Assembly: GCA_034189385.1 (NCBI GenBank)
Contig: JAXHVD010000005.1
Coordinates: 96,001-160,000, forward strand
Direction of reading: 5' to 3'
Length of the DNA stretch: 64,000 nt
DNA from: Thermodesulfobacteriota bacterium
Lineage (GTDB): Bacteria > Desulfobacterota > Desulfobacteria > Desulfobacterales > C00003060
Shown here: positions 40,755 through 63,427 of the stretch, in pieces
How positions within the stretch are numbered: the first letter of the stretch is position 1
How the letters are laid out: the number at the start of each line of letters is the position of its first letter
Made by a program: the position numbers and the translations under genes
Notes under the pieces: generated by a model
The model's database searches: none
Told to the model about the DNA's origin: nothing
Seen by the model: only the letters and a program-made list of their open reading frames with translations

Positions 40755-41365
40755 AACAGATCCTTTCCGCCTCCCCGAAGGGTGAAGGCAAGGGCCTTTT
40801 CAACCACCTGGTCCACCCTCTCTTCAGGGAGAAATCGAAACTGCTCTTTGATGAGAAGCAATGAGAGGCCGTGGAGGGAGGCCCACAGGGCAATGGCCAG
40901 GGTCTGGGCATCGCTTCCCGAAAAATAGCCTGCATCCAGGCACTGCTGGACGTGTGCCACAAATTTTCCCAGAGACTTCAGGGCCACCGATTCTTCAGCG
41001 CCCTCGGGCTGCTTGATGATCTCCTTGGTCCCGAACATGAGTTCATAGAGTTCCGGATTTGCCACTGCAAAGGCCACGTAAAGGCGGCTCCCTCTCTTCA
41101 CCCGCTCTATCGGGTCCGGGATCTCTTCCAACTCCATTTGCATGGCAAGAAGCCGTTCAAAGCCCTGAAAGCAGAGCTGGAGCATGATATCTTCCTTGTT
41201 CTCGAAATACCGGTAGATCGTTCCCGCGCTGTATTCTATCTGACGGGCTATGCGGCGCATGGAGACGGCTTGGTAGCCCCCTTTTGCGAACATGCCCATG
41301 GCCGCCTCGAGTATCCGCTGCCGCATCTTCTGCACGTCCCGCTCTTTCCGTTCCTTAATACCCAT
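40751..41365 (-). CDS. TetR/AcrR regulator
   Basis: G...SMRRIA....YSAGTIYRYF.NK HTH; W..LHG C-domain. Confidence 0.95.
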   Translation of the reverse strand: MGIKERKERDVQKMRQRILEAAMGMFAKGGYQAVSMRRIARQIEYSAGTIYRYFENKEDIMLQLCFQGFERLLAMQMELEEIPDPIERVKRGSRLYVAFAVANPELYELMFGTKEIIKQPEGAEESVALKSLGKFVAHVQQCLDAGYFSGSDAQTLAIALWASLHGLSLLLIKEQFRFLPEERVDQVVEKALAFTLRGGGKDLL

Positions 41366-41523: not shown

Positions 41524-41550
41524 GTCATTCCGGCGAAAGCCGGAATCCAG
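41524..41550 (+). repeat. Left palindromic repeat flanking GIY-YIG gene
   Basis: GTCATTCCGGCGAAAGCCGGAATCCAG. Confidence 0.9.
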
Positions 41551-41561
41551 GGAGCGCAGTG

Positions 41562-41853
41562 GTGAATAAACAACCAGCTGTCTATATCCTGGCAAGCAAA
41601 CGAAATGGTGACGCTATATGTCGGTGTCACTTCAAATCTCGTGAAGAGAATATGGGAACACAAAAACAATATGGTGGAAGGATTCTCCAAACGATACAAT
41701 GTTCATCGACTAGTCTGGTATGAATTACACGATAGCATGGAATCCGCTATAATCAGGGAGAAGAGGATAAAAGACTGGAAGCGAAAATGGAAATTGGAAT
41801 TGATTGAGAGTCGTAATCCTGATTGGCAAGATTTGTATTATGTGATTGCTTGA
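41562..41853 (+). pseudogene. Frameshifted small GIY-YIG nuclease
   Basis: NKQPAVYILASKRNG then, after one extra base near 41610, TLYVGVTSNL..R..EH...LVWYE...AI.REK.IK.WKR.WK..LIE..NP.W.DL. Confidence 0.85.
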
Positions 41854-41880
41854 CTAGATTCCGGCTTTCGCCGGAATGAC
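41854..41880 (-). repeat. Right palindromic repeat flanking GIY-YIG gene
   Basis: CTAGATTCCGGCTTTCGCCGGAATGAC; 26/27 identical to the left copy, inverted. Confidence 0.9.
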
Positions 41881-43562: not shown

Positions 43563-43754
43563 AGTCCCTGAGACGTCGAACCTCTCCTTTTCCCTAACGG
43601 CAGGTGTGTCGAGACTTGCCCCCGGATTCGGCAACAGAGGGATGGTGAAAGGTATTGGAGGCCAAAGAGAAGCGAATTTTCCCATCCCGAGGCTTCCATC
43701 GCATAGAAAAGACACAAACCAGCCCACTGCGGTTTTCTAGAAACCTCTGTTTAC

Positions 43755-44033
43755 TTTTTGTTTTTATTTCGTGCCAGAAAACCTGGTCCTTTGGGCCAGG
43801 TCAGGGTAAACTGGCTTTGCCAAATATCGTTAATAGTGCCTAAAGTTTTAAGTGCACTAAAGTGCGCTAAAGTTAAGGAATTGTGCCAATTATATAAAAG
43901 AATGGAGCGAAGCGACTTCCATCACTTTAGGCACTTTAGCTCACTTCAGGCACTTTGAACTTGTCCAGTATTCAGAAAACAGCCCCTTTCAGGGGCAAAT
44001 CAACGCCTGGTCCTTCGGGCCAGGATTCTTTAC
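43755..44033. mobile_element. Non-coding miniature element with terminal hairpins and an internal palindromic tandem array
   Basis: CCTGGTCCTT(T/C)GGGCCAGG at 43782-43800 and 44006-44024; internal AAGTGCNCTA-type arms in inverted orientation; boundaries approximate. Confidence 0.6.
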
Positions 44034-44063
44034 TTCAAATGGTTGTCAGGAAAGGAAAACTTG

Positions 44064-44513: not shown

Positions 44514-44657
44514 CTATCTCTCACCCCGGTAAGAGTTCCGCCTTACGGGGCAGGCAGAGGCCACGGAGCCTCAGAGTTGTTGACCCGATCTCCTGCGGGA
44601 AAACCGCTCAACCTGCTTGTGCGCGGTCATCCGTCGTCTGTTGTCTGTCATCTGAGA
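44514..44657 (+). repeat. Dispersed ~110-bp repeat, copy 1 (with a 31-bp nested insert)
   Basis: Aligns by eye with 50072-50180. Confidence 0.75.
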
Positions 44658-44752
44658 CCGCTGATAGCTCTAGCGACCCTGAGCAGACTCGAAGGGGAGC
44701 GGGCGAGAGAACCTGAGCCCTCAAATGTGAACTTGGCCCAGAAGAAGCCGAG

Positions 44753-46029: not shown

Positions 46030-46389
46030 ATGGGAGAACGAATAAACAGCTACAAGGAACTTCGGGTTTTCCAGAATGCTATGGACGCTGCCATGAAGAT
46101 CTTCGAGGTGACGAAAGGCTTCCCTGCCGAGGAAAGATTCTCCATGGTCGATCAAATGCGGCGTTCTTCTCGTTCGGTTTGTGCCAACATCGGAGAAGCC
46201 TGGCGAAAAAGGCGGTATAAGGCTGCGTTCATTGCCAAATTGAGCGACGCGGAAAGCGAGGCCTGTGAGACACAAGCGTTTCTCCGCTCCCTGATCTTCA
46301 GTCCGCAGGCCTGTGGCAGAAGAAAGGGAGGAGGGAAAGAATCGGAAGGCTTGACTGAACCATCTCAATCGTATATAAAAAGTATATGA
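46030..46389 (+). pseudogene. 3'-truncated four-helix-bundle (23S rRNA IVP-like) protein
   Basis: L.VFQ...FP.EE.FS..DQ.RRSSRSVCANIGEAWRKRRY...ESEACETQ, then similarity is lost. Confidence 0.75.
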
Positions 46390-46409
46390 TCGTATATAAT
46401 AAGTACATG
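46351..46409 (+). promoter_or_regulatory. Promoter and tandem operator of MNT-HEPN
   Basis: TTGACT-17 bp-TATAAA; tandem 21-bp repeats at 46368-46388 and 46389-46409 (19/21 identical). Confidence 0.65.
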
Positions 46410-46419
46410 GGGGGCTGTT

Positions 46420-46998
46420 TTGGTCAATATTAGAGCGCTCATACCCTCAAAGACCCGCCTTGAGCTGTTAAAGCTTTTGGCGCTGAACCCGGGGAATACT
46501 TTTCACGTCAACGAACTGAGCAGACGAACAGGGTTTTCTCTAAGGGGGGTGGCAAAGGAGCTGGAGAACCTTCTCTCGGGCGGCATCCTGAGTAGGGAGG
46601 TGACAGGCAATCAACACCGTTACCAGCTTGATCCTGATTGTCCTATTCACAATGAGATCAAGGGGCTTGTTTTAAAGACCGTGGGGCTTTGCGATCTGGT
46701 GAAGCGCGTCTTGGGGCCGGTGGAAAAAGATATTGAGCTGGCTTTGATCTTCGGTTCCTTTGCTTCAGGAGATTATGACAATACCAGTGACGTGGACCTC
46801 TTTGTGGTGAGCGACCTTTCTGGTGTCAAACTCTCTGAGCTACTGGGTCCGGTGCAGAATGAGATCGGCCGGGCCATAAATGTGTCTCAGTTCCGTCGGT
46901 CTGAGTATAGGCGAAGGAAAACACAAAAGGATCATTTCTTAACCCGGGTCCTTGAAGGCCCCACAATCACTGTCTTTGGTCACCTAGATGATGCTTGA
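46420..46998 (+). CDS. wHTH plus minimal nucleotidyltransferase (MNT) antitoxin
   Basis: N-terminal HTH (ELSRRTG.S...V.KEL), FGSFASG.....SDVDL. Confidence 0.88.
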   Translation: MVNIRALIPSKTRLELLKLLALNPGNTFHVNELSRRTGFSLRGVAKELENLLSGGILSREVTGNQHRYQLDPDCPIHNEIKGLVLKTVGLCDLVKRVLGPVEKDIELALIFGSFASGDYDNTSDVDLFVVSDLSGVKLSELLGPVQNEIGRAINVSQFRRSEYRRRKTQKDHFLTRVLEGPTITVFGHLDDA

Positions 46999-47440
46999 GC
47001 TCTGGAAACAGAATGGCTGGCTGCGTGAGTATGAAACCAGCCGCGGCGAGGTCGCGAGCATCCTGGGTTTGGTCAGCCGCGATCTCACCGATGCTGTTCA
47101 AGGGGAGATCTAAACAGACTGACGATTTAACATAGCATACAATGCCGGCCTACAGCTTGCTACCCTGGTGCTTTATGCCAGCGGGTATCGGGCCGGCAGA
47201 GGGGAGAGTAAACACTACCGCGTCATTCAGGCACTCCCATTGGTGATGGGAGAACGCTTTTCGTCCATTGCTGCCTATCTGGATAACTGCCGGAGAAAGA
47301 GGAATGTAAGTGAATATGACGCAGCGGGAACAGTTTCGCAAAAGGAGGTAGAGGATTTACAGCAGACGGCTCAGCACCTCAAGAGGGAAGTGGAGACATG
47401 GCTAAAGGAAAATCATCCCGAGCTCTGCGGACAGGGTTGA
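46991..47440 (+). pseudogene. HEPN-family toxin with two in-frame stops
   Basis: Frame reads ...GEI*TD*RFNIAYNA...GYR...H...RRKRN..EYD; TAA at 47111, TGA at 47120; start overlaps the MNT end. Confidence 0.8.
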
Positions 47441-47974: not shown

Positions 47975-48086
47975 CCAATGGTTTTGTGTTTGAGTTCACC
48001 AAGAAAGAGTTCGAAGACTTGAGATGCCATTTTGGCACCTCAAGTTGGGGAGGCACAAGATATATGCCTCTGGCATTTACAGAAGA
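47975..48086 (+). pseudogene. Internal fragment of an ORF6N-domain gene
   Basis: F.FE.TK.EFE.LRC.FGTSSWGG.RY.P.AFTE. Confidence 0.65.
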
Positions 48087-48094
48087 GGGGGGCC

Positions 48095-48139
48095 CCAGGG
48101 CTTGGGCCAAAGTAAATGTGGAAAAGTAAAGGATGTCCC
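48095..48139 (+). repeat. Junction motif copy 1
   Basis: CCAGGGCTTGGGCCAAAGTAAATGTGGAAAAGTAAAGGATGTCCC. Confidence 0.85.
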
Positions 48140-48226
48140 GCTTCTAGTCCGGGGAGTCGAAAGGACTCTGGTGAAAGGTTGACGGCAAACCTGGGGCTAC
48201 TGAGAATACTGACCGGCTGTCCTGTA

Positions 48227-49453
48227 TCACGACAGAATCAAGCTGATGGGAAGTGCCCACAGCCTTGGGCCGAGATTCACCGCGTCCTCGCCGTTGTGAC
48301 AGAGAATACCCGCTTTGCAGTGGGGCGTTGCTGCCAGAAAGGCCTTCAGGCCCGCAAGGTCTTTTTCCTGCCACCTGGCCGACGATTTGAGTTCCAAGGC
48401 GATGCAGGATCGGCCTACCTCGATCACGAAGTCGACTTCGTGGCGGCCCTGGACAGCCCAAAAATGCAGGACGGCCCTTTGCCAGCTGGCAGCGAGAATG
48501 GAGAGAAGATTCTGGGCCACATAGGTTTCAAACATTGCGCCGTAGAGCGGATCGCTCCGGATTGACGATGACACTTCCAGGCCCGCCAGATAGCCTGCCA
48601 GACCGGCATCGCTAAGATAGAGTTTCGGCGACTTGATGAGACGGCTCGATCTGTTGCCGAGATAAGGCGCCGTTCTGGTGATAAGGAATGACGCCTCAAA
48701 CAGGGAGAGATAGCGGGATGTGGTCGCCGCGCTCAGCTTGGCATCACGGCCAAGTTGGCTCGGTGACAGAAGCTGCCCCGAACGCAGTGCGGTGAGGCGA
48801 AGCAAGGTCCGAAGGGCCGTTAGATCCTGTACCCGACTTAGTTCCCGAACATCCCTTTCAAGATAGGTCTGCTCGTAACCCCGAAACCATATGAGCGGAT
48901 CCTTAACCTGCCTGAGGCAGACTGCGGGCATGCTGCCCCTTGCAACATCCTCCGGACGGATGGGATGTTCGGCGTCTCTGGGGCCGATCTCCTGATCCTG
49001 AAAGAACCTCTTTATGAAAGGCTCCACCGTTGTTTGTCGACGCACTTCACGTCGGTTGAAGGGATGGAGCGCCATGTAGACCGATCTGCCCGCCAAGCTT
49101 TCGGTAATGGCCTTTAAGACTGAAAAGTTGGCGGAACCGGAAAGCAGAAACTGGCCCGGAATCCTCTCTTTATCCACACTGCGCTTGATGGCGCCGAATA
49201 TCTCCGGGCACTTGTGGGCTTCGTCTATGGTCAGGGGCAGACCGCGGCGGACAAAGCCGTCGGGGTCCGCTTTCGCTGCTTCAAGCTGGGCGAAATCGTC
49301 AAAGCTGACATAGCTTCGCTGGCCGAGATCGCCTTCGGAACAGAGAAAGGTGGTTTTACCGGTTTGTCGCATCCCGGTGAGAACCACCACAGGCATATTT
49401 TCAAGGCCGACAAGGAGAGCGTCGGTGATATCTCTCGGATGATAGTCTGTCAT
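48227..49453 (-). CDS. AAA+ ATPase with DUF4143-like C-terminal nuclease domain
   Basis: TGMRQTGKTT, IDEA, LSGS, ESLAGR, KSPKLY..D.GL, EVDFV....ELK. Confidence 0.9.
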   Translation of the reverse strand: MTDYHPRDITDALLVGLENMPVVVLTGMRQTGKTTFLCSEGDLGQRSYVSFDDFAQLEAAKADPDGFVRRGLPLTIDEAHKCPEIFGAIKRSVDKERIPGQFLLSGSANFSVLKAITESLAGRSVYMALHPFNRREVRRQTTVEPFIKRFFQDQEIGPRDAEHPIRPEDVARGSMPAVCLRQVKDPLIWFRGYEQTYLERDVRELSRVQDLTALRTLLRLTALRSGQLLSPSQLGRDAKLSAATTSRYLSLFEASFLITRTAPYLGNRSSRLIKSPKLYLSDAGLAGYLAGLEVSSSIRSDPLYGAMFETYVAQNLLSILAASWQRAVLHFWAVQGRHEVDFVIEVGRSCIALELKSSARWQEKDLAGLKAFLAATPHCKAGILCHNGEDAVNLGPRLWALPISLILS

Positions 49454-50071
49454 GATGCGCCATCTTATAGTGTCATAATGCCATTGTCAAATGAAATATT
49501 TTGACAGTGCCAGCCGAATGTCTGTGGGGAGGGCGAGGGCGGGTCGGACCAAGACAACTACTTGAAATGTTGAACGAAGGATATGAAAGCTGGTTTGTTC
49601 TTGGGGTGTGAATGCCATTTTTGCCAAGGAAATGATCCTTCCGAGAAAAACTCTGCCACTGAGTTGGTGTGCAGTAAGACCTTACGAGGACATTTTGGTG
49701 CATGAGGATGACGGTCTAATCACTGAAAATGCCCACTTTATATGTTATAAGTTCTTGAATATCAAACGATCAGCTCGGTGCGACCCGGGGCCGATGAGCT
49801 TATGTGCGTCCAGGAGATCTTCCCAAGTCGACGTCGAATGGCTTCTGCTGAATCCAACAATATTTCTTGACATTTCAACCTGATATCGCTATTCTCGCCC
49901 AGGCTTGAAGTTCTTATCTATAGGTCCCTTATTGTTGTGGGAGCATTCAGTGCAAATGGGAACACGGCCGGTACTGGTTGGGCTCCATTTCTCTGTAAAG
50001 AGAGGTGGAGCTTTTTCGTTTCAGGGACCTGTGGGATGTTCGACCCTGGAGAGTTTCGGCAGGGCCAAACA

Positions 50072-50180
50072 CTATCTCTCACAGAGTACACGGAGCCTCA
50101 GAGCCCTTGAGCCGATTTCCCGGGGGAAATCCGCTCGCCTTGCTGTGAGCGGTCATCCGGGATCCATCGTCTGTCACCGG
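50072..50180 (+). repeat. Dispersed ~110-bp repeat, copy 2
   Basis: CTATCTCTCACAGAG..CACGGAGCCTCAGAG...GCGGTCATCCG, shared with 44514-44657. Confidence 0.75.
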
Positions 50181-50223
50181 ACATCTGTGAATGTGTTTGC
50201 GGCAAAGGGCTTAGAGGAAGATT

Positions 50224-50607
50224 ATGACCGGGAATCTTTCAGCCACCTTCAACGAGGCGAACTATGTTCAACTGCTAAATCAGGTCAAGTCCCGCATCCG
50301 CCAGGCTCGTGTTCGTGCAGGTTTGGCCGCCAACAAGGAGTTGATTGCTCTTTACTGGGCTGTTGGGAAGTTGATTGTCAAGCGTCAGCGGTCGAAAGGA
50401 TGGGGATCTGCCGTCATTGAGCGGCCTTCCCGGGATATCCGGAAGGAGTTCCCAGACATTCAGGGCTTCTCACCGCGCAACATCTGCCGCAGCCTGCGGC
50501 AGATCTTGATGGTGAATATCTGCCCGAGGGGCACGATACTAATCGTGGCGACAGGTTGCCGCCATGATAGTCTGCGTATGTCGGCGTGCGTCTGTGGCGA
50601 AAAATAG
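50224..50607 (+). pseudogene. N-terminal fragment of DUF1016/YhcG-like protein
   Basis: AN.ELI.LYW.VG..I...Q...GWG..VI....DI...FP...GFS.RN, then similarity is lost. Confidence 0.75.
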
Positions 50608-50676
50608 AGGAAGCAAGAACTCGAAACCCGTGAACCCTTAACTCGAAACCAGTAATCTATCCAACGGAGACCAAGA

Positions 50677-51069
50677 ATGAAGAAGAGAGCGCTCTTAGTC
50701 TTTTTGCTGTTAGCGATGAATGCTGCTGGGGCATGGGGAGAGCAAGACAGCAGACCGCCAAGGGTGGTGAGCACCTTTCCTCAAAATGGAAGTATGGATG
50801 TTGATCCTTCTTTGCAGGAGATATCCGTCACCTTTAATGAAGAAATGCAAGATGGCAATTGGTCATGGGTTTATGAAGATAAGGATACGTTTCCTCAAAT
50901 AGTGGGCCAAGCGTTCTATGCCGAGGATATGAAGACCAATGTGCTTCCGGTAAAGCTGGAGCCCAATAAGGAGTATGTCATTTGGATCAATTCTGAGAAG
51001 TTTACCAACTTTAAAGACAAGAGCGGCAACTCGGCCTTTCCATTCAAATTCACGTTTAAGACGAAATAG
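50677..51069 (+). CDS. Secreted Ig-like domain protein
   Basis: Signal peptide; PP.VVST.P.NG..DV, I.VTFNE.M, L.P...Y, D..GN, F.F.T. Confidence 0.8.
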   Translation: MKKRALLVFLLLAMNAAGAWGEQDSRPPRVVSTFPQNGSMDVDPSLQEISVTFNEEMQDGNWSWVYEDKDTFPQIVGQAFYAEDMKTNVLPVKLEPNKEYVIWINSEKFTNFKDKSGNSAFPFKFTFKTK

Positions 51070-51251
51070 CATCTGATTATTCGCTGGAGCCAAAAGGGAA
51101 AGGGAATCCGTCAACTCCTTCAAATCATGGCAGAAAGTAATAAGAGTTAACCGTAGACTCCAAAGGCGATAATATAGTCCGTTTGAACGAAATGCCCATC
51201 TAGAACTGGACGTCTGACAATCGGCTGAAGGGCCGTTTGGGATACCTAGCC

Positions 51252-52088
51252 ATGAAGCTGGATGAAATCGGGGTTTGGTCTGAAATCAAATTGGACATTA
51301 TAAGAGAGTATGCAGATGCTTTCACGAAGATAATGAGAAAGCAGGATTGGTGTAGAGGATATGCCTACGTCGATGGGTTTGCCGGCGCCGGCATCCATAT
51401 CTCCAGAAGAACCGGTCAGTTCATTCCTGGGTCTCCCCTGAACGCCCTTGAACTTGAGAATCCTTTCACGGAATATCACTTCATCGATATCGATAAGGTG
51501 AAGGCAGAAGCCCTCGAGATTCTCAGCCGGGAAAAACCGAACATAAAGATTTATCCAGAAGACTGCAACTCTGCATTGTCCAAAGAAATCTTTCCATCTC
51601 TCCGGTATGAAACCAGAAAGAGGGCCTTATGCATCTTGGACCCATATGGTTTACATCTGAATTGGGAAACCATTATGGATGCAGCTAAGCTGCGGACGAC
51701 GGAGATCTTCTTGAACTTTCCCGTTATGGACATGAATCGGAATGTCTTGCACAAGGATTTGCTGTCGGCGGACCCTGACCAAATAGAGCGGATGAACCGG
51801 TTCTGTGGGAGCGAAGAATGGCAGGACATGCTATATGAAGAAGACAAGCAGCTGGGTCTCTTCGGGGATACGTATCGAATCAAGGTTGTTGACAGTAATA
51901 TTAAGCTTGGGCTTTGGTTCAGCAGAGAAAGGCTACAGAAGGCAGCAGGATTCAAATTTGTTCCTGAGCCCGTGCTCATGAGAAACAGTAAGGGCGGCCC
52001 TCTATTCTTCTTGTTCTTTGCCTCACACAACGAAACAGGCAAAAACATCGTGACTGACATCTTTAACAAATACAGGAAATACTTGTGA
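51252..52088 (+). CDS. tcmP: TcmP-like (three-Cys-motif partner) methyltransferase-fold protein
   Basis: G.WS..KL..I..Y..AF, YVDGFAG.G, GSP..AL, ILDPYG, EIFLNF. Confidence 0.85.
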   Translation: MKLDEIGVWSEIKLDIIREYADAFTKIMRKQDWCRGYAYVDGFAGAGIHISRRTGQFIPGSPLNALELENPFTEYHFIDIDKVKAEALEILSREKPNIKIYPEDCNSALSKEIFPSLRYETRKRALCILDPYGLHLNWETIMDAAKLRTTEIFLNFPVMDMNRNVLHKDLLSADPDQIERMNRFCGSEEWQDMLYEEDKQLGLFGDTYRIKVVDSNIKLGLWFSRERLQKAAGFKFVPEPVLMRNSKGGPLFFLFFASHNETGKNIVTDIFNKYRKYL

Positions 52089-53239
52089 TGCCTATTCTAA
52101 AGGAGTATGCCGCTGAAGAGATGGAACTCGCGGATCGAATACAAGAAGAAAGCGTGGCATACGCTCAACAAGACACGAATGAGCCCCTTGTCAGAGAGTT
52201 GCGGGTGAGCCGTGGAACAACGAATGAGGCTCGGGCGAAGAAGATGGCCAAACGTGCCGGATTGCCTTTGATTTGGGTGGACGGAGTCCCAGGGTCCAAC
52301 GGCGAAAACGGTATAGAGAAGCTTTCTGCTGAGAGGGGCGTCTTGCTGCTAAGGGACAGAAAGAGTCGCTTCATTGAGCAGTTTCAGCATCCCATTGGCC
52401 GATGTGCCAAGTTCTACAAATTGACAGCCTACAACAACTGCAATTTCTGGTGCGAATATTGTTATCTTTATTTGACCTTCCGCACCCAGCCTGTCTCCAC
52501 TCATTTCATAAACTATGAAAAAATGTATGACGAGATCGTGAAATTTGACAAATCTCGCGTACCGAGGGCCTTAAGAGTCCTAAACCTTGGTGAACTCGGT
52601 GATCCTTTAGCCGTAGACTACATTACCGGGTTTGCCAAACAAGTTATTCCCTTCGTGCCTAAACACGCCCCACGGACCAAACTTTTGTTTCTGACCAAAA
52701 GTGACTGTGTGGATGAGATTTTGGAGCTGAACCATGGGGGGCAATCCATTGTGTCGTTCAGTGTCAATACGGAGAAGGTATTTGAGCAGTTGGAGCACAG
52801 AACAGCCTCTCCTGAATCCCGTTTAGCGGCAGCACAAAAGGTCCAAGAAGCGGGCTACGAGGTTCGTTTGAGGATAGACCCGGTTATTCTCTATTCTACC
52901 TGGGAGAAGGATTACATATCGCTGGTCGATAGGATTTTTGAATTTGTTGAGCCGACCAGGATAACCATAGGTGAGTATAGACCGTCCAATGGGCTCGCCA
53001 ACCACATCAGCTCCCGTTTTCCAGATTCTCCTCTGCTTCGGGTCAACAAAAGCCTGGTCAAGGAGGGGGCAAAACTGAGGTACCCTAAAACGCAGAGGAT
53101 AAAGATGTTCAGGACCATCATTAAAGCCATAAAAAAATATAAAGCCGACATAGATATTGCCCTGTGCAAGGAGCAGCCACACATATGGAAGGCCGTGGGC
53201 CTAGATGCGAGGGGTCTGTTCTGTAACTGCGTCGCTTAA
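52088..53239 (+). CDS. Spore photoproduct lyase-like radical SAM protein
   Basis: CNFWCEYCYL, GELGD.L, LTKS, SFSVN, E..T.S...RL.AA, RIDPVI; C-terminal CKE...CNC. Confidence 0.85.
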   Translation: MPILKEYAAEEMELADRIQEESVAYAQQDTNEPLVRELRVSRGTTNEARAKKMAKRAGLPLIWVDGVPGSNGENGIEKLSAERGVLLLRDRKSRFIEQFQHPIGRCAKFYKLTAYNNCNFWCEYCYLYLTFRTQPVSTHFINYEKMYDEIVKFDKSRVPRALRVLNLGELGDPLAVDYITGFAKQVIPFVPKHAPRTKLLFLTKSDCVDEILELNHGGQSIVSFSVNTEKVFEQLEHRTASPESRLAAAQKVQEAGYEVRLRIDPVILYSTWEKDYISLVDRIFEFVEPTRITIGEYRPSNGLANHISSRFPDSPLLRVNKSLVKEGAKLRYPKTQRIKMFRTIIKAIKKYKADIDIALCKEQPHIWKAVGLDARGLFCNCVA

Positions 53240-53353
53240 ATGGCTGGACAGAATCTGTGGTTTGAAGCCTCTCAGAAGACATATAGGAGTGGTATTAGGG
53301 TGAAGGAAGCGCGTTTCATGGAAAAGAGGCACGAAGAAGAAAGGGTGAGGCCG

Positions 53354-53398
53354 CCAGGGTTTGGGCCAAAGTTAATGTGGAAAAGTAAAGGGTGTCCT
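53354..53398 (+). repeat. Junction motif copy 2
   Basis: 41/44 identical to 48095-48138. Confidence 0.85.
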
Positions 53399-53431
53399 GA
53401 AAGTCTCCCTGTGAAGGGCGTCCCGAAAGTC

Positions 53432-53470
53432 CTCGCTACACTCGGCGGCCCCTGAACTCCAAAGTTCGGG
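53432..53470 (+). other. Partial attC-like site (3' half)
   Basis: TCGCTACACTCGGCGGCCCCTGAACTCCAAA-GTTCGGG, 10 nt before the next ATG. Confidence 0.55.
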
Positions 53471-53480
53471 ATCAATAGAA

Positions 53481-54344
53481 ATGAATGGATACGACTACAT
53501 CTTGTCAAAGCAAACGGCATGGGCGGCCAATTTTGGCCTTACCCTGGTTGGAAGCAAAGGAAGGCGCGGATGCCCTGCTTACACTCGTAAATTGGATCAG
53601 AACCTCTTTCAACCACTTTTGCCGGATGTTCGGAAGTCATTTGCCGCTGGGGATGGTGGCGAACTCGGTTCAACGGGGTTTCCCGGCAAGATGCAGGCTG
53701 TCCATTCCTCCTCGGCGCTTGGAATCAATGTTTTTCAATACTGGAAATCGATAAACGCAGTCCCGGTAATTGCAGCCCAATGTGGCCTCTGCCGTGTGGG
53801 GTCGCAGGTGCCAAGTGACATACATTTTGAGGAGAAGTATCCTGTCAACGACAAATTTGGTTATCACCCGAACATCGACGTAGTGATCCACAACGCACCA
53901 TCGGCAAAAATCAAGAGGTTCGCAATCGAATGCAAGTTTTCTGAAGCATACGGTGCTCACAATCATGGCGGACTCAAGGCAAAGTACCTCAACCTTGATG
54001 ATATCTGGGAAGGCATTCCCAATTTGCTGGACTTTGCAAGGCATATATCACCCGATGACCATGAATTTGTTCAGCTGCACCCAGCCCAACTTGTGAAGCA
54101 TATCCTTGGTCTAAAGCGGCAGTTCGGAAAGGCTGGCTTCCGTCTGCTGTACCTTTGGTACGATGTCCTCGGCGACCAAGGGAAGCGGCATCGGGATGAG
54201 GTTTTGAAGTTTGCCGAAGTTACTAAAACCGATGGCATCAAATTTCACTCGCTCACCTATCAGGAATTGATTTCTAATTTGGCAAAAAAATTGAGAACGG
54301 AACACCCAGATTATATACGGTATCTTACCGCGCGATACTTGTAA
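53481..54344 (+). CDS. PD-(D/E)XK restriction-endonuclease-like protein
   Basis: HSSSAL..N.F, FE.K, PNIDV....AIECKF.E, QL.KH. Confidence 0.75.
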   Translation: MNGYDYILSKQTAWAANFGLTLVGSKGRRGCPAYTRKLDQNLFQPLLPDVRKSFAAGDGGELGSTGFPGKMQAVHSSSALGINVFQYWKSINAVPVIAAQCGLCRVGSQVPSDIHFEEKYPVNDKFGYHPNIDVVIHNAPSAKIKRFAIECKFSEAYGAHNHGGLKAKYLNLDDIWEGIPNLLDFARHISPDDHEFVQLHPAQLVKHILGLKRQFGKAGFRLLYLWYDVLGDQGKRHRDEVLKFAEVTKTDGIKFHSLTYQELISNLAKKLRTEHPDYIRYLTARYL

Positions 54345-54371
54345 GAAGAATGGTTTGTCTTACCTGGGAAT

Positions 54372-54442
54372 TCACAACCACACCTTGTACTTCACGGCTA
54401 TCCCGCTGGGGTCCATAGCCGCAAGTGAAGGCCACATTGACT
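54372..54442 (+). other. attC-like site
   Basis: TCACAAC-5 bp-stem CTTgTACTTCaCGGCTAT / ATAGCCGCAAGTGAAG with two unpaired bases-5 bp-ATTGACT. Confidence 0.7.
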
Positions 54443-54468
54443 CGACACGATAACGAAAGGAGTGTGCT

Positions 54469-56277
54469 GTGTTCCTTACGAAACTTCGAGTCGTGAACTT
54501 CCGCTCGATTCGGGACACCTCGACCTTACCAGTATCACGGCTTCTATCCCTGATCGGAGAGAATAATTCCGGGAAGTCAAACATCATGGCGGCTGTGCAA
54601 TTGCTCATGAGTGCCGGCAAAGGCGGCATTGGTAAGGGCGACTTCAATGATCCTGGGGTGCCCATCACTATAACTGGAACCTTCTCCGAGTTGACTAACG
54701 GAGAGAAGCAACGCTGGCAGAAGTACCTCGTTGGCGGTGAACTAATCCTTGAGAAAAGGCTGACAATTGAGACAGATTCGAACACAGGCAAAGAAAAGGT
54801 GTCTGGAGAGTTTCATGGGTACACTGCAGAGCCTAAAGAGTGGTTTCTATCACCTGCGAAGATAGAAGAGAAGGAGGGCGCTCGACCGAAGTGGGTGGAC
54901 ATCGTGCAAGCCAATGGCTTGCCAGACTACTTCCTGAAAGACGGCAAATGCAACAAGTCACAGTTCATCAGCTCTCTAAAACGATACCTTACAGAGAATT
55001 CCGTTGAATACGAGGAGCCAGATCTCAGCGTGACACAGGCTCTCGGACTGGAGAGTAACGTCATTGCCTCTCTGCCTACGGTGCACTTCCTCCGCGCCAT
55101 CACGGACTACAGCGACGAAATTGATAAGCGATCGTCTACGACTACTTTCCGTCGCCTCATGGGCGATCTCTCGGAGCGGATTCTTAAAAATGATCCGGAC
55201 TACGGCAAGATTGAGGAGGCACTTCGGCAGATCCGTTCTCTGCTCAATGCCCCTGGAGACGATGCGGGCTCACCACGGCTCAAGGCGCTTTCGACCATTG
55301 AGACTAAGATAACCGAATTACTCAAAAAACTGATGCCATCCGTAATGTGCATTTCGATGTCAGTAGATGTCGACGATATAAAGGACATGTTCTCTGGAGG
55401 GATTTCTCTCGCGGTCAATGACGGAATTGAGACTGATGTGTTGGCGAAAGGCCACGGTTTGCAGCGATGCATAGTTTTTACGCTTCTCCAGACGCTGATC
55501 ATGAACGAACGCGAGCAGCTTGTTCCTGGTGCTGAACAGCCACCGGATACATCGAGTATCATATTAGCTATCGAAGAGCCAGAGCTATACATCCATCCAC
55601 AGCTTGCGAAGCTTTTCTACGATGTCATGAAGGAGTTTTCTGTTTCAGATCAAGTCATCTATGCAACCCATTCGCCTCTTTTTGTTGATGCTTTTGAGCA
55701 CGACAGTATTGCCATTGTAACAAAACCTTCGATTGAGACGGGAACTGTTGTCACGACGTGCGATTCTACAGCTTTCGATGGCCTGGATGACCGCAAGGTT
55801 TTCAAGGGCCTCACCAGACTCAATCCAGCAGTCAACGAGATGTTCTTCGCCAAGCGGGTCCTTCTAGTAGAAGGACCAGAGGACCAAATCGCAGTGAGCG
55901 CCTATCTCCTGAACGAAGGAAGGATCCAGAACCGAATCGAGGAACTGGACTGGTCAATCATTGTGGCAGGGGGCAAGGCTGCGATTCCGTTCTTCCAGCG
56001 CGTGCTTAACGCGTTTGCCATCCCATACGTAGTGCTCCATGATCTGGACATTAATCCTGATATGAATGCTAACGACGTCGGAACGCACAAGAAGACCAAC
56101 CAAACCATTGCCCAGCTTGCCGGCGCAAATCGTGTGGTAACGTTTCCGGTCAAACTTGAGAGATCTCTCGGCATAGAGGGCCATCTGCGGGACCAGTATC
56201 GGGCACATCAGTTCTTTCAGCCCGCTGAGAATATGACTGAAGAATTCCGCAACGTGGTAGCGTCGGTATTTGAATAA
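54469..56277 (+). CDS. OLD-family ATP-dependent nuclease (ABC ATPase plus TOPRIM)
   Basis: GENNSGKS, IEEPELYIHPQ, ATHSP, LLVEG.ED, HDLD. Confidence 0.92.
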   Translation: MFLTKLRVVNFRSIRDTSTLPVSRLLSLIGENNSGKSNIMAAVQLLMSAGKGGIGKGDFNDPGVPITITGTFSELTNGEKQRWQKYLVGGELILEKRLTIETDSNTGKEKVSGEFHGYTAEPKEWFLSPAKIEEKEGARPKWVDIVQANGLPDYFLKDGKCNKSQFISSLKRYLTENSVEYEEPDLSVTQALGLESNVIASLPTVHFLRAITDYSDEIDKRSSTTTFRRLMGDLSERILKNDPDYGKIEEALRQIRSLLNAPGDDAGSPRLKALSTIETKITELLKKLMPSVMCISMSVDVDDIKDMFSGGISLAVNDGIETDVLAKGHGLQRCIVFTLLQTLIMNEREQLVPGAEQPPDTSSIILAIEEPELYIHPQLAKLFYDVMKEFSVSDQVIYATHSPLFVDAFEHDSIAIVTKPSIETGTVVTTCDSTAFDGLDDRKVFKGLTRLNPAVNEMFFAKRVLLVEGPEDQIAVSAYLLNEGRIQNRIEELDWSIIVAGGKAAIPFFQRVLNAFAIPYVVLHDLDINPDMNANDVGTHKKTNQTIAQLAGANRVVTFPVKLERSLGIEGHLRDQYRAHQFFQPAENMTEEFRNVVASVFE

Positions 56278-56282
56278 CAGGA

Positions 56283-56343
56283 GGCCAACAAGCCGGATGC
56301 AGGCGACGGGAAAAAGCCGCGTCCCTGATTAGAATAGTAGGAC
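56283..56343 (+). other. Degenerate attC-like site
   Basis: GGCCAAC 5 nt after the stop, imperfect stem ATGCAGGCGACGG / CCGCGTCCCTGAT, eroded end GTAGGAC. Confidence 0.55.
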
Positions 56344-56371
56344 ATCTTTATTTTCAAACGGTGAAGTGACC

Positions 56372-57637
56372 ATGTTCAAATTCATTCACGCAGCCGATGC
56401 GCATTTGGACAGCCCGTTGCGGGGTCTGTCTCGTTATGAATCTGCGCCTGCGGAAGCCATTCGTGATGCGTGCCGCAGGGCTTTCGAGAATCTCGTAGAT
56501 CTGGCCATTGAAGAGAAAGTCTCGTTTGTCTTGTTGGCCGGGGATCTTTATGACGGTGACTGGAAGGATTACAGTACCGGCATATTCCTTAGCCGGCAGA
56601 TGGGCCGACTGGGCCGGCACGATATTTCGGTTTTTGCTGTTGCTGGAAACCACGATGCCGCCAATCGCATGACTAAAGCCCTTGATAGTCCCGCCAACAT
56701 GAAGTTCTTGTCGTCCCGGAAAGTTGAAAAAGTGAGGTTGGATGCGTTGGGCGTAGTGATTCATGGGCGGAGTTTTGGCACACAGCACGTCGAGGAAAAC
56801 CTCGCGGCAGGCTTTGGTGCCGGCGACAAAGGCATGTTCAACATTGGTCTGTTGCACACCAGCTTGGATGGCCGAGAAGGCCATGAGGTGTATGCTCCTT
56901 GTACGGAAGATGATCTGCGTTCAAAAGGCTACCAATACTGGGCGTTGGGGCATGTGCACAAGCAGGAATTTGTTTCCGAAGACCCGTGGATCGTGTTCCC
57001 CGGCTGTATTCAGGGCCGTCATATTCGAGAAACCGGTGCCAAAGGGTGTGTACTCGTCACCGTGGAAGACGGTGCTGTGATTGCAGTGGACAGGTGCCCG
57101 TTGGATGTGTTGCGTTGGGTTGCGTGCAGTGTGGATCTGACAGATGCCAATGACATGCGAGACGTCCTTGAACGCGCTCGGAAATCGATTGAAAACGAAA
57201 GGACATCAGCTGCCGGACGACCCATAGCCATGCGCATCCGCTTTGAAGGGGCTGCGCCCATATCCGATGATCTGGCAGCGTATCCAGAACGATTTGAGCA
57301 ACAGATCAGGGCGCTTGGCGCGGAAATCGCCGGGGATGATTTGTGGATAGAGAGAGTGGAAAATGCGGCTGTAGGCAAACTCGATTTGGAATCCACGTTG
57401 TCCGATGACAGCGCATTCGGAAAGCTCCTGAAGAACATACTGGCCACACCGGAAAATCCAGATGAGATAGAAGGCCTTGAAGACGTGATTGGCGATCTCA
57501 GGCAGAAGATGCCGGTAGAGGCCTTTGGGGCGGACTCGGTCCTCAATCTTGATGAACATCAAACTGTCGTGCGTTTGGTTGAAGAGGCCAAGCATATGTT
57601 GGTTGGAAGGTTGTTGCGGGCGGGAGGGGCCAAATGA
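56372..57637 (+). CDS. SbcD/Mre11-like (YhaO-type) metallophosphoesterase nuclease
   Basis: HAADAHLD, AGDLYD, GNHD, LLH, YWALGHVH, PG..QGR. Confidence 0.93.
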   Translation: MFKFIHAADAHLDSPLRGLSRYESAPAEAIRDACRRAFENLVDLAIEEKVSFVLLAGDLYDGDWKDYSTGIFLSRQMGRLGRHDISVFAVAGNHDAANRMTKALDSPANMKFLSSRKVEKVRLDALGVVIHGRSFGTQHVEENLAAGFGAGDKGMFNIGLLHTSLDGREGHEVYAPCTEDDLRSKGYQYWALGHVHKQEFVSEDPWIVFPGCIQGRHIRETGAKGCVLVTVEDGAVIAVDRCPLDVLRWVACSVDLTDANDMRDVLERARKSIENERTSAAGRPIAMRIRFEGAAPISDDLAAYPERFEQQIRALGAEIAGDDLWIERVENAAVGKLDLESTLSDDSAFGKLLKNILATPENPDEIEGLEDVIGDLRQKMPVEAFGADSVLNLDEHQTVVRLVEEAKHMLVGRLLRAGGAK

Positions 57638-60600
57638 GAATCGACCGCCTTGATTTGATTGCCTACGGCCCCTTCACAAATAAGTCATTGGATCTATCAG
57701 AAGGCGCTTCAGGACTTCACTTAATATACGGAGACAATGAAGCGGGGAAGAGTACCTCATTGAGGGCTCTCATCGCATGGTTGTTTGGCATTCCAGCCCG
57801 TACCAGCGACAATTTCCTTTTCAAAAATCCGCAACTGCGAATCGGCGGAAAACTCAGGCTTTCAGGCGGCAAAGAAATAGAATTCGTACGCAGGAAGGGA
57901 ACAAAAGGCACGTTGTTGGACCCTCGCACCGATGCTGCCCTGGACGATTCGGTCTTGTTGCCGTTCTTACCGGGTGGCATCGATGAAAATCTCTTCAAGA
58001 CATTGTATGGCATAGACCATGGCAGATTGGTAGCCGGCGGCCAGGAGCTGTTGAGCCAATCAGGTGATCTTGGTCAGGCACTCTTCAGCGCAGCGGTAGG
58101 GACTGCCGGTCTCCGGGAAATATTGTCCGATTTGCAAAATGGTGCTGAGGAACTTTTCAAGCCCAAGGCTTCTACGAAATTGGTGAACCGGGCCATATCC
58201 AGTTTGAAAGAAGCAAAAAAGCGGATCAAGGATGCGACTCTTCCTGTTGCAGAATGGAAAAGACTGCAAAAAGAACTTGCCGATACCATTTCCGCCATTC
58301 AACGCGTTGAGGAAGAAATCAATGAGAAAGGCAAAGAAAAGAGCCGATTGGACAGACTCAATCGCGTAAAGGGAGCCTTGGCTGAGCGCCGTGCCGTCAT
58401 GGCTCGTATTGAACAATTGGGAGACATATTGCTTCTCCCGGAGGACTTTCTCGACAAACGCAAAACCGCCAGTAACACTCTGCAAAGTGCCATGGAAGCC
58501 AAGGAAAGAGCTGAAGCCAAGCTCTCCCGCCTAAAAGAAGAATCACAAAATTTGAATGTCCGCAACGAATTGCTGGAAAACGAAGAGGCCATTCTGGCCC
58601 TTTACAAAGACCTGGGAGCCGTCGAAAAAGCGACCAAAGATCGGCCACAGCAAGATGGAAAACGGCGCGAGTTGCGCAACGACGCAGAGCGATTGCTGAA
58701 AGGGGTCCGTCCCGATGTCGGTATCGATGATTCCGACCAGCTGCGGCTGCTGATCAACAACAAGAAGTGGATTTCCGGTTTGGCCCAGAAGCACAGCCTC
58801 CTTAATCAAAAGAAAAAAAAGGCCGAGGCCACACTGCGCGATATCAAAGACGAACGAGCGGCAATCAAGAAGAAACTGGGGGAACAGGCGCAATCGCATC
58901 TAGACTTGAACGAACTCAAGGCGGCGGTGACAGCCGCCCGCAAGGCCGGGAACCTGGAGCAGCGATTGGCCGAAGCACAAAAACGCGCCCTAGATGAGAA
59001 TGGGGCCTATGAGCGTGAGTTTTCCAGGCTTGGAAGATTCTCCGGAACCATGAAAAGGCTTTTGGAAGTTGCCATGCCCGTGTCAGAAACCCTGGACGCA
59101 TTTGAGAGGCGGTTTGACAAATTGGCCCAAAAAATCAGGGACTTTGGCCGCAGGCAAAAGGAACTGGAAAAAGAGCAGAAACAGACAGAACAGGACTTAA
59201 AAGCGCTGTTGTTGACAAGTGATGTGCCCAACATTTCAGAGCTTGAAGAATCGCGCTCGGTTCGAAACTCTGGATGGAACCTTATCAAACAAAAGTACAT
59301 ACAGGAACTGGATGTGGAAGAGGAGATCGAGGCGTTTGTGTCGGATTCCGACCTGCCGACATTATATGAACAAAAAGTCGAGGCTGCAGATCACGTATCG
59401 GATCGACTTCGGCTTGCCGCAGACCAGGTAGTGAAACGGGCGGATCTGGAGGCAAAGACTTCAAGCCTGAAATCCCGTCACCACGACATGACCGAAGAAG
59501 TCAGAAAAGCGAATGAGGCCAAGGAAGCAAACGAGAAGGGCTGGAGCAGTATTTGGGCGCCATTGGGGATAGACCCCGGAACGCCAAGGGAGATGAAACA
59601 ATGGCTTCTCAGAGTGGATAAGCTTCTGGCAAACGTTCAGGCAGCCAATACTGTTTCCGGGGATGCAAAGAAACTGACCGAGGATTGTAAGGACCTGAAG
59701 GCATCTGTTTCCTTGCAGATATCAAAATTCGATGAATCCATAGACCTCCAAGAGATGAGCCTTGAGGCCATGATTAGCCTTTGCGAGCAGCGAATCGAGC
59801 TGGAAGAAGCGGTTCTCGAACGGAAACGCCAATTAGAACATTCGCTGGACAATGCAGAAAAACGTATCCAAAGAGCCCATGAAGAGCTCACCTCCATCGA
59901 GAACGATCGCGCCAGCTGGGCCGGAGAATGGCGTCAGGCCATCGAGGGCCTGGGGCTGAAACCTGAAGTCCATCCGGAGCAAGCAACCGAGGCATTTGAT
60001 CAGCTATTGGCGTTTTTTGACAAATTCGACAAATCAGAAGAGCTGCGCAGGCGCATTTACGGAATGGACCGGGACGCAAAGGAATTTGAGAAAAAAGTGT
60101 TCGCATTCGCCGACAGTGTTGGCTTTAAAAGAGACGGCCAGGAGGCGAACACGATTGCAGCTCAATTGAACCGTGACCTCAGTGAATCTCGGGAAGCACG
60201 GGCGAGCCTCAAAAAAATAGAGACCCAGAAAAAAGAGATAAAGGAAGAGATCGAAGAGGCTGACATAACGATTCGAACGGCCCTGGACCAGCTTGCTTCA
60301 TTGCGGGACCAGGCTAATGTGGAAACAGACGATGCGCTGGAATCGGCCGGCGAGAATTCTCGAAAAATGCGTGAACTGAAGCAGAAGATCGAAACACTTG
60401 AACAAGAACTTTCACGCAATGGAGATGGTTTGAGTATCCAAGAACTGGAGCAAGAAGCTGGCGAGGCGGATGTGGATGCCATCGAGGGTGAACTGGAAAG
60501 GGTTTCCTCCGAACTCAAAGAAATCCAGGAAAAGCGAGACATCCTTCGGGACCAACGCCAAACGCTTCAAAACGAGATACAGACAAAGGATGGCAGTGCC

Positions 60601-61149
60601 GCGGCCGCTAGCGCATCCGAGGAAGCAGAGCAGCTTCTAGCCACCATGGTTTCCGGCGCAGAGCAGTACCTCCGCCTGAAAATCGCTGCGCTCATCCTTG
60701 AACAGCGAATAGAGGACTATCGGAAGAAAAACCAGGCTCCAGTTCTGGCCAGGGCTGGCGAACTATTTTCCAAACTCACCCTGGAGTCTTATGCGAATCT
60801 TCGGGATGAATTGGACGACAAAGGGAAACCCGTCCTGCTGGGTGTTCGTCCAAACGATGTCGAAGTGTCCGTTGACGGCATGAGCGATGGAACCCGCGAT
60901 CAACTCTACCTGTCGCTTCGCCTTGCGACTCTTGAGCAACACCTGAGTAAGGGAGAGCCCATGCCGTTCGTGGTTGACGATATCCTAATCGGCTTTGACG
61001 ATAATCGTACAAGGGTCTGCCTTGAGGTCCTCACTGAATTGGCGCTCAGTACCCAGGTCTTGCTTTTCACCCACCACAAGAGGGTTGTTGAGCTGGCCGG
61101 CAATCTCGAAGCGAGGGCCGGAATTTATGAGCATGAGTTGACCTTATAG
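57634..61149 (+). CDS. YhaN-type Rad50/SMC-like coiled-coil ATPase
   Basis: YGDNEAGKST, long coiled coil, MSDGTRDQLYL.LRL, VDDILI.FD, FTHH; ATGA overlap with upstream gene. Confidence 0.93.
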   Translation: MRIDRLDLIAYGPFTNKSLDLSEGASGLHLIYGDNEAGKSTSLRALIAWLFGIPARTSDNFLFKNPQLRIGGKLRLSGGKEIEFVRRKGTKGTLLDPRTDAALDDSVLLPFLPGGIDENLFKTLYGIDHGRLVAGGQELLSQSGDLGQALFSAAVGTAGLREILSDLQNGAEELFKPKASTKLVNRAISSLKEAKKRIKDATLPVAEWKRLQKELADTISAIQRVEEEINEKGKEKSRLDRLNRVKGALAERRAVMARIEQLGDILLLPEDFLDKRKTASNTLQSAMEAKERAEAKLSRLKEESQNLNVRNELLENEEAILALYKDLGAVEKATKDRPQQDGKRRELRNDAERLLKGVRPDVGIDDSDQLRLLINNKKWISGLAQKHSLLNQKKKKAEATLRDIKDERAAIKKKLGEQAQSHLDLNELKAAVTAARKAGNLEQRLAEAQKRALDENGAYEREFSRLGRFSGTMKRLLEVAMPVSETLDAFERRFDKLAQKIRDFGRRQKELEKEQKQTEQDLKALLLTSDVPNISELEESRSVRNSGWNLIKQKYIQELDVEEEIEAFVSDSDLPTLYEQKVEAADHVSDRLRLAADQVVKRADLEAKTSSLKSRHHDMTEEVRKANEAKEANEKGWSSIWAPLGIDPGTPREMKQWLLRVDKLLANVQAANTVSGDAKKLTEDCKDLKASVSLQISKFDESIDLQEMSLEAMISLCEQRIELEEAVLERKRQLEHSLDNAEKRIQRAHEELTSIENDRASWAGEWRQAIEGLGLKPEVHPEQATEAFDQLLAFFDKFDKSEELRRRIYGMDRDAKEFEKKVFAFADSVGFKRDGQEANTIAAQLNRDLSESREARASLKKIETQKKEIKEEIEEADITIRTALDQLASLRDQANVETDDALESAGENSRKMRELKQKIETLEQELSRNGDGLSIQELEQEAGEADVDAIEGELERVSSELKEIQEKRDILRDQRQTLQNEIQTKDGSAAAASASEEAEQLLATMVSGAEQYLRLKIAALILEQRIEDYRKKNQAPVLARAGELFSKLTLESYANLRDELDDKGKPVLLGVRPNDVEVSVDGMSDGTRDQLYLSLRLATLEQHLSKGEPMPFVVDDILIGFDDNRTRVCLEVLTELALSTQVLLFTHHKRVVELAGNLEARAGIYEHELTL

Positions 61150-61190
61150 TACTCTTGCGGGGAAAAGTGAGGAAAAGTCCGGAGGCCCTG

Positions 61191-61282
61191 CGGGACAATG
61201 GTGAAAGGTTGACATGTTGGGCCGGAGAGAAGTAGGGGCCTTCTGACGGCCCCTACGGGGGGATGACGTTCAAGACTAGACA
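61191..61282 (+). repeat. Dispersed repeat containing TGGTGAAAGGTTGAC and a GTAG-type palindrome
   Basis: Aligns with 63332-63427; GTAGGGGCC-N7-GGCCCCTAC at 61232-61256. Confidence 0.75.
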
Positions 61283-61290
61283 GAAGGGGA

Positions 61291-61316
61291 AATGTGGAAA
61301 AGTAAAGGATGTGCCC
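61291..61316 (+). repeat. Junction motif copy 3
   Basis: AATGTGGAAAAGTAAAGGATGTGCCC. Confidence 0.8.
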
Positions 61317-61678
61317 AAAATGATGCCAGGGAAAACGGAAACGCCGCACCGACGTGGATGGAACAAGCCGGGTCGGTATTTGTGACTTTTAAGCCGTCAC
61401 CACTAATTGAGACCCCGGAAGTCGCCCCGGAAGTCACCCCGGAAGTACGGCTATTAAAAGCGCTAACCACTGACATGAGTCGACAGGAGCTTCAGGCGGC
61501 TTTGGGGATGAAAGATAATGAGCACTTCCGCAAGGCCTATCTTTTGCCAATGCTTGAAAGAGGGCTCATCGAGATGACCATCCCGGACAAGCCTAGAAGC
61601 AGTAAACAGAAATACCGGCTGACGGACGCCGGGCGTAAGGTTCTGGAACCACGAAACACGCGAACCACACGAAAATGA
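61317..61678 (+). pseudogene. C-terminal wHTH fragment (Fic-family C-terminus-like)
   Basis: TPEVAPEVTPEV linker, R.EL...LG.....HFR..YL.P....GLIEMT.PDKP.S..QKYRLT; in frame with the junction motif ATG. Confidence 0.7.
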
Positions 61679-63046: not shown

Positions 63047-63244
63047 TGCACCTCTTTCCATGGCATTGTTCCCATGGTGAAGGGTTGACGTATTTGGCCA
63101 AGATAAAAGCAGAAGCGTTGCAGTGTTTGAGGGTTGAAGGAAAGGGAGATGAATCGGGTAAGTTGAGAGCGATGCTGTATGCCCTGGTTGCCCGGATTCC
63201 AGTGGGTTGGAAGCGATATTGATGGAGAAGAGGAAGCGCTCATT

Positions 63245-63331: not shown

Positions 63332-63427
63332 GGGTACAATGGTGAAAGGTTGACGTATTTAGCTTGGAGAGAAGTAGGGGGCTCTATCATGATTGCCCCC
63401 GCGTGGGGTGACGTTTGCGGCTGGACA
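63332..63427 (+). repeat. Second long copy of the TGGTGAAAGGTTGAC repeat
   Basis: ACAATGGTGAAAGGTTGAC...GGAGAGAAGTAGGGG...GCCCC..CG.GGG.TGACGTT shared with 61191-61282. Confidence 0.75.

Follow-up and report, generated by a model that had tools for sequence, protein, structure and literature searches.

This study concerns a short repeated DNA motif in the genome of a Thermodesulfobacteriota bacterium (assembly GCA_034189385.1, here G000). The window analysed is a stretch of 64,000 nucleotides (contig JAXHVD010000005.1, positions 96,001 to 160,000), and it contains three exact copies of the motif core. The motif is almost certainly the terminal inverted repeat (TIR) of a TIRtron, a class of elements encoding an HUH/Y1 transposase (TIRYT) with a DnaA-like helix-turn-helix (HTH) domain, and the gene-less copies in the window are probably the scars of one-ended strand transfer driven by such a TIRYT in trans. 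As a sequence class the TIRtron is already known. Added here are genus-wide evidence for one-sided junctions, a toxin-antitoxin unit bounded by TIR tips, and co-variation of the TIR with the HTH.

Exact matching across the window found an identical 18-nt core at positions 48115, 53374 and 61291, on the plus strand in every case, compared with a chance mean of 0.08 and a maximum of 1 in shuffled sequence. A preliminary description, prepared from the DNA letters of the window, had reported these three same-strand cores and an agreement of 41 out of 44 nt between copies 1 and 2; both observations were reproduced. Copy 1 (48114–48139, tail 48140–48150) has its tip towards downstream, copy 2 occupies 53373–53398 (tail 53399–53409), and copy 3 (61290–61315, tail 61316–61327) gives the ATG of an open reading frame (ORF) starting at 61292. 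All three are plus-strand members of what we call family A, copies 1 and 2 being solo TIRs. The tail duplication described earlier at copy 2 is present as a partial second TIR with a repeated tail (53410–53432, plus strand, period 26 nt). Searching the genome and its relatives, as the preliminary description had proposed, a weight matrix returned 12 copies above 25 bits in the whole of G000 and none in shuffles, and a degenerate pattern matched 155 sites, spread over 24 of the 37 genomes of the genus, its reversed form giving 0. Only the first matrix and the degenerate pattern were used; an iterated matrix drifted into Walker A codons of sigma-54 activators and other noise and was left out. 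A structured RNA was ruled out as the identity of the motif, as there is no Rfam match in window positions 41000–64000 and folding of the copies is not above that of shuffled sequence (z −0.8 to +1.3); the GTAG tag is also absent.

In the related locus L024, a family-A motif lies directly past the stop codon of a gene whose 333-aa product matches Y1_Tnp and Bac_DnaA_C, and the left TIR preceding this gene agrees with the inverted motif at 23 of 26 nt. The 18-nt core of copy 1 is found unchanged in the right TIR of this full element. L029, L046 and L047 show the same layout and, having one flank in common, were counted as one insertion, while L109 is an independent full element (TIR match 22/26). 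Six of the eight non-self matches with at most one mismatch adjoin DNA coding for a TIRYT C-terminus, downstream of it. Of 301 genomes belonging to the order, 148 carry homologous Y1 genes, and TIRs agreeing at a minimum of 17 of 24 positions flank 31 of the 35 genes examined, versus 1 of 34 controls. The L024 protein has the HUH motif PNHFH and the Y motif RYIHLNP, the latter present in 29 of 30 aligned proteins; Bac_DnaA_C matches were obtained for L024 (E 7e-5) and for the related enzyme L006 of G000 (E 3e-7), both below the curated cut-off. A scan of a genome contig collection with the 18-mer returned 24 loci, four of which, labelled Desulfobacterota, continue into the TIR tip; the others mostly stop before it and are probably chance matches.

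These features agree with the TIRtron/TIRYT class as described by Di Nocera et al. (2013; PMC3733652) and, as TnpA-Y1 subclass 2.1.2, by Quentin et al. (2018; PMC6006769), in the parts of both papers available to us: a RAYT-like (REP-associated tyrosine transposase) HUH/Y1 gene flanked by TIRs, not by repetitive extragenic palindromes (REPs), and a dispersed family of solo, paired or clustered TIRs (PMC3733652), with NH[YF]H (or NHVH) and Y[IV]HLNP motifs, a Bac_DnaA_C-like tail and a G-rich tip (PMC3733652, PMC6006769). According to the same parts, the class is prevalent in delta-proteobacteria at low copy number (PMC3733652, PMC6006769), and subclass 2.1 Y1 proteins occur in about 15% of strains (PMC6006769). 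One difference is that most tips here read GGGGACG, one position off the consensus GGGG[AT][CG]A[CG] given for most, not all, TIRs (PMC3733652); GGGGACAC is found in some (L069 and the second copy at L024). A GGGGACG-tipped family was not found in the accessible TIRYT literature, whose figures or supplements may list it. The preliminary description had taken the motif for the end of a trans-acting recombinase or HUH/Y1 element. The HUH/Y1 assignment holds and the Y1 link it had proposed to look for exists in relatives (L024, L109); the idea of a new recombinase site fell with the identification of the motif as a TIRYT TIR. It was right that the window holds no such enzyme, as none of the seven Y1_Tnp matches found in the genome by profile search lies on the contig of the window.

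The DNA on the outer side of the tip was analysed in 180 sites (168 from the genus and 12 from G000), for which up to three mismatches were allowed inside fetched loci, and which leave out eight listed pattern matches near contig ends and five unlisted ones; for counts on 169 sites, 11 near-duplicate or short outer flanks were removed. Conservation extends about 12 nt beyond the tip, through a tail that reads C-AAA-x-TT-CCC, and is lost after it. Tandem duplications of the tip, mostly of 8–11 nt (26 nt at copy 2), are present at 27 of the 169 sites but at only 0–6 of 160–166 control positions. Among 47 flanks with a pattern-free homologue, outer homology begins within 20 nt of the tip in 14, in 10 of them at 8–20 nt, and one such joint falls in the middle of a REase-ARP gene. 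The joint is sharp and sits just past the tip and a tail of 8–14 nt. A fixed breakpoint that can cut genes, as claimed earlier, is thereby borne out, although its position is not directly after TGTCC but after a tail of about 10 nt. No enrichment of the attC R'-box was found beside the 169 tips, which rules out attC remnants as preferred targets. A target duplication of fixed length was likewise not found: direct repeats of 4 nt or more flank 6 of 24 elements, with a mean of 8% and a maximum of 38% in shuffles, and short duplications may exist.

A different picture was obtained on the inner side. In ten groups, comprising 34 sites, the members have 60 nt or more of non-element DNA in common on the inner side, and these sites have 32 distinct outer flanks; five of the seven pairs with at least 100 nt of common outer DNA also have inner DNA in common. 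Six complete or near-complete copies of a 143-bp miniature inverted-repeat transposable element (MITE) have left-flank DNA in common and six different right flanks. A ParE-like toxin gene with its HTH antitoxin partner, associated with half a MITE and a TIR, recurs in G035 and G030 with 651 shared non-element nt and different neighbours on both sides, and its upstream edge is a tip-like sequence with tail in both genomes. Inner-side DNA is therefore inherited with the TIR and outer-side DNA is replaced, so that the carried DNA lies upstream of the motif and not downstream, as the preliminary description had implied. This asymmetry is the strongest evidence for activity. It is difficult to reconcile with a passive origin, in which whole TIRtrons and MITEs were inserted, random deletions left solo ends, and the outer joint is the original insertion point, as common inner DNA should then come with a common outer flank. 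Complete MITEs of 143 bp and about 250 bp and full elements do exist, 40 of the 58 right halves seen for the 143-bp MITE break off at various inner positions, inner boundaries lie mostly away from tips, and a deletion next to copy 1 (see below) resembles an ordinary microhomology event. Taken together, we consider this passive origin unlikely, though it is the best of the alternatives.

Ends of several TIR families stack on one another. Co-oriented tips are enriched about three- to four-fold within 100 nt outside the tip, and 7 of 14 outer far junctions fall at another tip against a background of 2.4%, these representing three independent segments. Together with series of co-oriented TIRs and intervening genes (L129, L130, L133) and the tips on both sides of the toxin-antitoxin unit, this is what would be expected if TIRYTs recombined tip to tip and moved defined gene-plus-TIR units into ordered, integron-like arrays. 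Against this, most upstream boundaries are ragged, genes between TIRs stand in either orientation and are often cut, no family-A TIR was found behind the window modules in the relatives examined, and no circular form was seen among the joints listed for contigs of four sequencing runs. Such cassettes are improbable, and the ordered accessory array of the preliminary description was not borne out in the form of two-sided cassettes.

Recognition of the TIR was approached by comparing sequence similarities across 29–30 full elements. How similar two TIRs are over their inner 20 nt correlates with the similarity of the C-terminal HTH (rho 0.47–0.48) and hardly with that of the HUH core (0.13); the partial rho for the HTH is 0.38 (permutation p 0.0005 in a test that ignores phylogeny), against 0.08 for the rest of the protein. 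The contrast between HTH and HUH core suggests, at the level of sequence co-variation, that the HTH is the predicted reader of the TIR. This points to protein recognition and speaks against host recombination or replication slippage at short repeats without an active transposase (microhomology of TIRs, or forks stalling at annealed TIRs), an explanation in whose favour are a run X4 contig that crosses over inside a shared family-B TIR (63332 joined to 48169), tip duplications that look like slippage products, and an assembly with no intact family-A enzyme, but which is very improbable since in several cases the outer joint leads into DNA whose homologue is free of TIRs, sometimes within a gene, and such joints cannot be produced by recombination between TIR copies. 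In the parts available to us, the published TIRYT accounts describe neither a fixed joint after a tail of about 10 nt nor tip duplications, nor inner passenger DNA, gene truncation or TIR-HTH co-variation (PMC3733652, PMC6006769).

According to the one-ended model, the HTH would bind the TIR over its inner ~20 nt. The HUH domain would nick single-stranded DNA at the tip or slightly past it, in the C-run that closes the tail. The nicked end would then be joined to a new target, and the outcome would be either an adjacent deletion or a TIR moved together with a variable length of upstream DNA. Use of alternative nearby C-runs could yield the 8–11-nt tip duplications, and with repeated events in a permissive region, co-oriented ends of several families could pile up amid accessory genes and gene fragments, as in the island described below. 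In a wider and more tentative form, which may or may not prove correct, TIRYTs in general would be HUH enzymes programmed by their HTH, for which scattered solo TIRs serve as one-ended splice sites. They would cut just past the tip, move cargo to new targets near other tips, and so build and reshuffle islands in trans. If true, the upstream cargo would include whole toxin-antitoxin and defence genes, the capture route would be distinct from those of integrons and IS91, and specificity would be set by a swappable HTH.

Several observations weigh against one-ended transfer. Neither cleavage nor transposition was observed, the data being sequences alone, and the genomes of the genus are related metagenome assemblies whose sites are not independent, a limit that adds to the disregard of phylogeny in the co-variation test. 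In 33 of the 47 flanks outer homology begins at a distance above 20 nt. Of 53 inner far junctions, only 6 lie at another tip (background 2.4%), these boundaries being mostly ragged; for independent MITE truncation junctions the figure is 6 of 28 (background 6%), and some of the shared "non-element" DNA may consist of unrecognised miniature elements. For none of the three window copies did the relatives or the four sequencing runs, one of which (X1) is near-identical and may be the source, yield a pair of empty and filled sites, and no circle or deletion joining two window tips was seen among the joints listed for these runs, whose evidence consists of contigs, which show presence, not absence. 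Finally, an intact family-A enzyme was not found in the 90%-complete assembly, where contig C27 carries a decayed 5' piece of a family-A gene; the A copies of the window are perhaps old, or cross-served by a relative, or the gene serving them was not assembled.

In REPtron/RAYT systems, as in the present one, a low-copy enzyme gene is accompanied by many dispersed gene-less sites. The HUH/Y1 core is related (NF047646 match, below cut-off), but the present sites, unlike REPs and REPINs, do not fold better than shuffles and have no GTAG tag, and the present enzyme, unlike RAYTs, is predicted to recognise DNA by a separate HTH. IS91/ISCR elements combine HUH chemistry with one fixed and one ragged end and carry adjacent DNA across gene boundaries. 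By analogy, the present system appears to work like IS91 one-ended transposition with different parts: the protein is a 333-aa Y1_Tnp plus HTH protein, for which Y1_Tnp and DnaA_C are the only matches, and in place of a distinct ori and ter the element has a single sequence, in inverted orientation, at its two ends. Integrons likewise separate accessory and defence-type genes by co-oriented short sites. The present sites however do not fold like attC. Many of the genes are cut, they stand in both orientations and have ragged upstream limits, and the enzyme linked to the sites does not belong to the tyrosine recombinases. Classical DDE insertion sequences differ in that the linked enzyme here is a Y1 protein and no fixed-length duplication was found.

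A second enzyme, L006 on contig C46 of G000, is a 342-aa Y1 plus DnaA-like HTH protein encoded between inverted repeats and shares 54% identity with the L024 protein. Its left repeat is the family-B motif, of which the window has four plus-strand copies: 48162–48183, of the left-end type of this intact TIRtron, with its tip facing copy 1; 61192–61213, which with copy 3 brackets a hybrid miniature element of about 125 bp (B left end, A right end); an eroded core at 63075–63089 with one mismatch; and 63333–63354 at the right edge of the island, which has 84 nt at 79% identity in common with 61192–61270. At L006 itself (C46:2583–2939) the left end and first 19 codons stand three times in tandem with a 119-bp unit, and an outer unit of 8 nt is repeated ahead of them; the triplication could be real or an assembly artefact. 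L007 (C24:40948–41883) is a third Y1 plus HTH gene with another clustered end family, and its type of end repeat also occurs beside family-A MITEs in relatives. A MITE of about 150 bp with family-A TIRs at both ends (C63:5330–5513) is stacked directly on a TIR of another family. In G014, L143 (C99) is inside-out, with a TIRYT 3' end and TIR, a 281-aa HNH gene, and a TIR with a TIRYT 5' half, and adjoins a 700-aa RRXRR/HNH (IscB-like) gene.

The window copies sit in an accessory stretch of about 20 kb bordered by dinB and a dienelactone hydrolase gene. Several of its genes match PADLOC models and its modules have other neighbours in relatives of the genus, none of the relatives examined carrying the island as a whole. 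Copy 1 is preceded by the middle fragment of an ORF6N gene (47980–48113, plus strand; Pfam ORF6N, E 3.5e-8, model positions 42–79), its inner-side passenger. This fragment had been described earlier as cut at the motif. The fragment is there, but alignment to an intact ORF6N gene on C19 places the break about 25 nt upstream of the core, the DNA in between matching the 3' flank of the C19 gene, so that the motif as the site of the cut was ruled out. Because the intact C19 gene has the same 3' flank, with TIR-like sequence on either side, the break is an internal deletion joining the fragment to this flank and not a TIR joint. Copy 2 is likewise preceded by an ORF6N remnant, overlooked earlier, which comprises the 3' end and 3' flank (53285–53372, plus strand, aligned to C19:55772–56329) as its inner-side passenger; both copies thus have the ORF6N 3' flank on the inner side. 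A leader of about 150 bp with a terminator-like hairpin, common to C19, C30, C34, C56, C7, C64 and C42 of G000, precedes several ORF6N genes and three family-A TIRs and also lies upstream of an integron integrase gene; an integron integrase (IntI) is present on another contig of the genome. Also on C19 (54240–54900), a remnant starting about 25 nt past a family-A tip resembles a group II intron, a candidate assignment.

Downstream of copy 1 lies an AAA_14/DUF4143 ATPase gene (48227–49453, minus strand; PADLOC candidate PDC-S01), whose module begins at the family-B TIR (48168–9) behind three different upstream sequences in contigs of the sequencing runs. It is followed by a truncated gene for a DUF1016 N-terminal domain (50224–50607, plus strand; PDC-S02-like) and, from domain matches, by a pair encoding TcmP and an SPL-like radical SAM protein (51237–53239, plus strand). 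In all five genus homologues shown, different DNA follows this pair, two of them sharing about 110 nt mutually. In L144 (G014 C131) the pair lies upstream of a type I restriction-modification system and a cluster of SMODS, patatin and ThiF genes resembling CBASS (cyclic oligonucleotide-based antiphage signalling system), followed by family-A TIRs. Just past copy 2 and a short candidate attC-like remnant (folding z-scores −0.3 to −0.5) is a REase-ARP nuclease gene (53481–54344, plus strand), and then genes for an OLD-family ATPase/TOPRIM nuclease, a metallophosphoesterase and an AAA_27 SMC-like protein (54469–61149, plus strand). The half attC reported earlier beside copy 2 was not confirmed by these folding scores.

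At copy 3, the joint lies about 12 nt beyond the tip, where homology to a 490-aa AlbA_2/HATPase_c_4/Fic-like_C protein sets in at around residue 385, in agreement with the tip-plus-tail rule. The in-frame fusion reported earlier is present: the putative chimeric ORF 61292–61678 (plus strand) starts with MWKSKGC and comprises the C-terminal ~115 aa of this protein with its Fic-like_C domain. Given the position of the joint, the MWKSKG start of this putative ORF is a by-product of the TIR. Such starts were rejected as markers of real genes; the corresponding ORF at copy 1 (48116–48565) matches no Pfam family and overlaps the ATPase gene in antisense.

The window contains further repeats and gene fragments. 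Window positions 46030–47440 contain a truncated four-helix-bundle (23S rRNA IVP/Avd-like) gene, then a pair of an HTH-nucleotidyltransferase gene and a partner (PADLOC PDC-M05), the second gene of which has an in-frame stop. A member of another dispersed repeat family with about 40 matches in the genome is found at 43577–43770. The 276-bp repeat at 43759–44034 looks like a recent MITE; it has four further copies at 96–98% identity and splits an AbrB-like/PIN gene pair. At 41524–41880 a small GIY-YIG gene lies between 27-bp inverted repeats with 96% complementarity, and more short repeats occur at 44555–44713 and 50082–50190. Several contig joints of the sequencing runs fall at 44709–44710 and lead to 46333, 50073 or 50632, hence a second junction family may operate in the island.

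A literature search found descriptive accounts of TIRYTs and no experimental work on them. The family described here supplies a 26-nt TIR plus tail as substrate, a predicted cut zone, the cognate enzyme and a predicted recognition domain, so that TIRYT function is directly testable. If one-ended capture holds, it would offer a possible HTH-programmable tool for joining single-stranded DNA. For the bacteria that carry them, the solo ends are likely to be one-sided splice points at which accessory and defence-type genes are reshuffled and, on the same condition, would be an overlooked driver of defence-island turnover.

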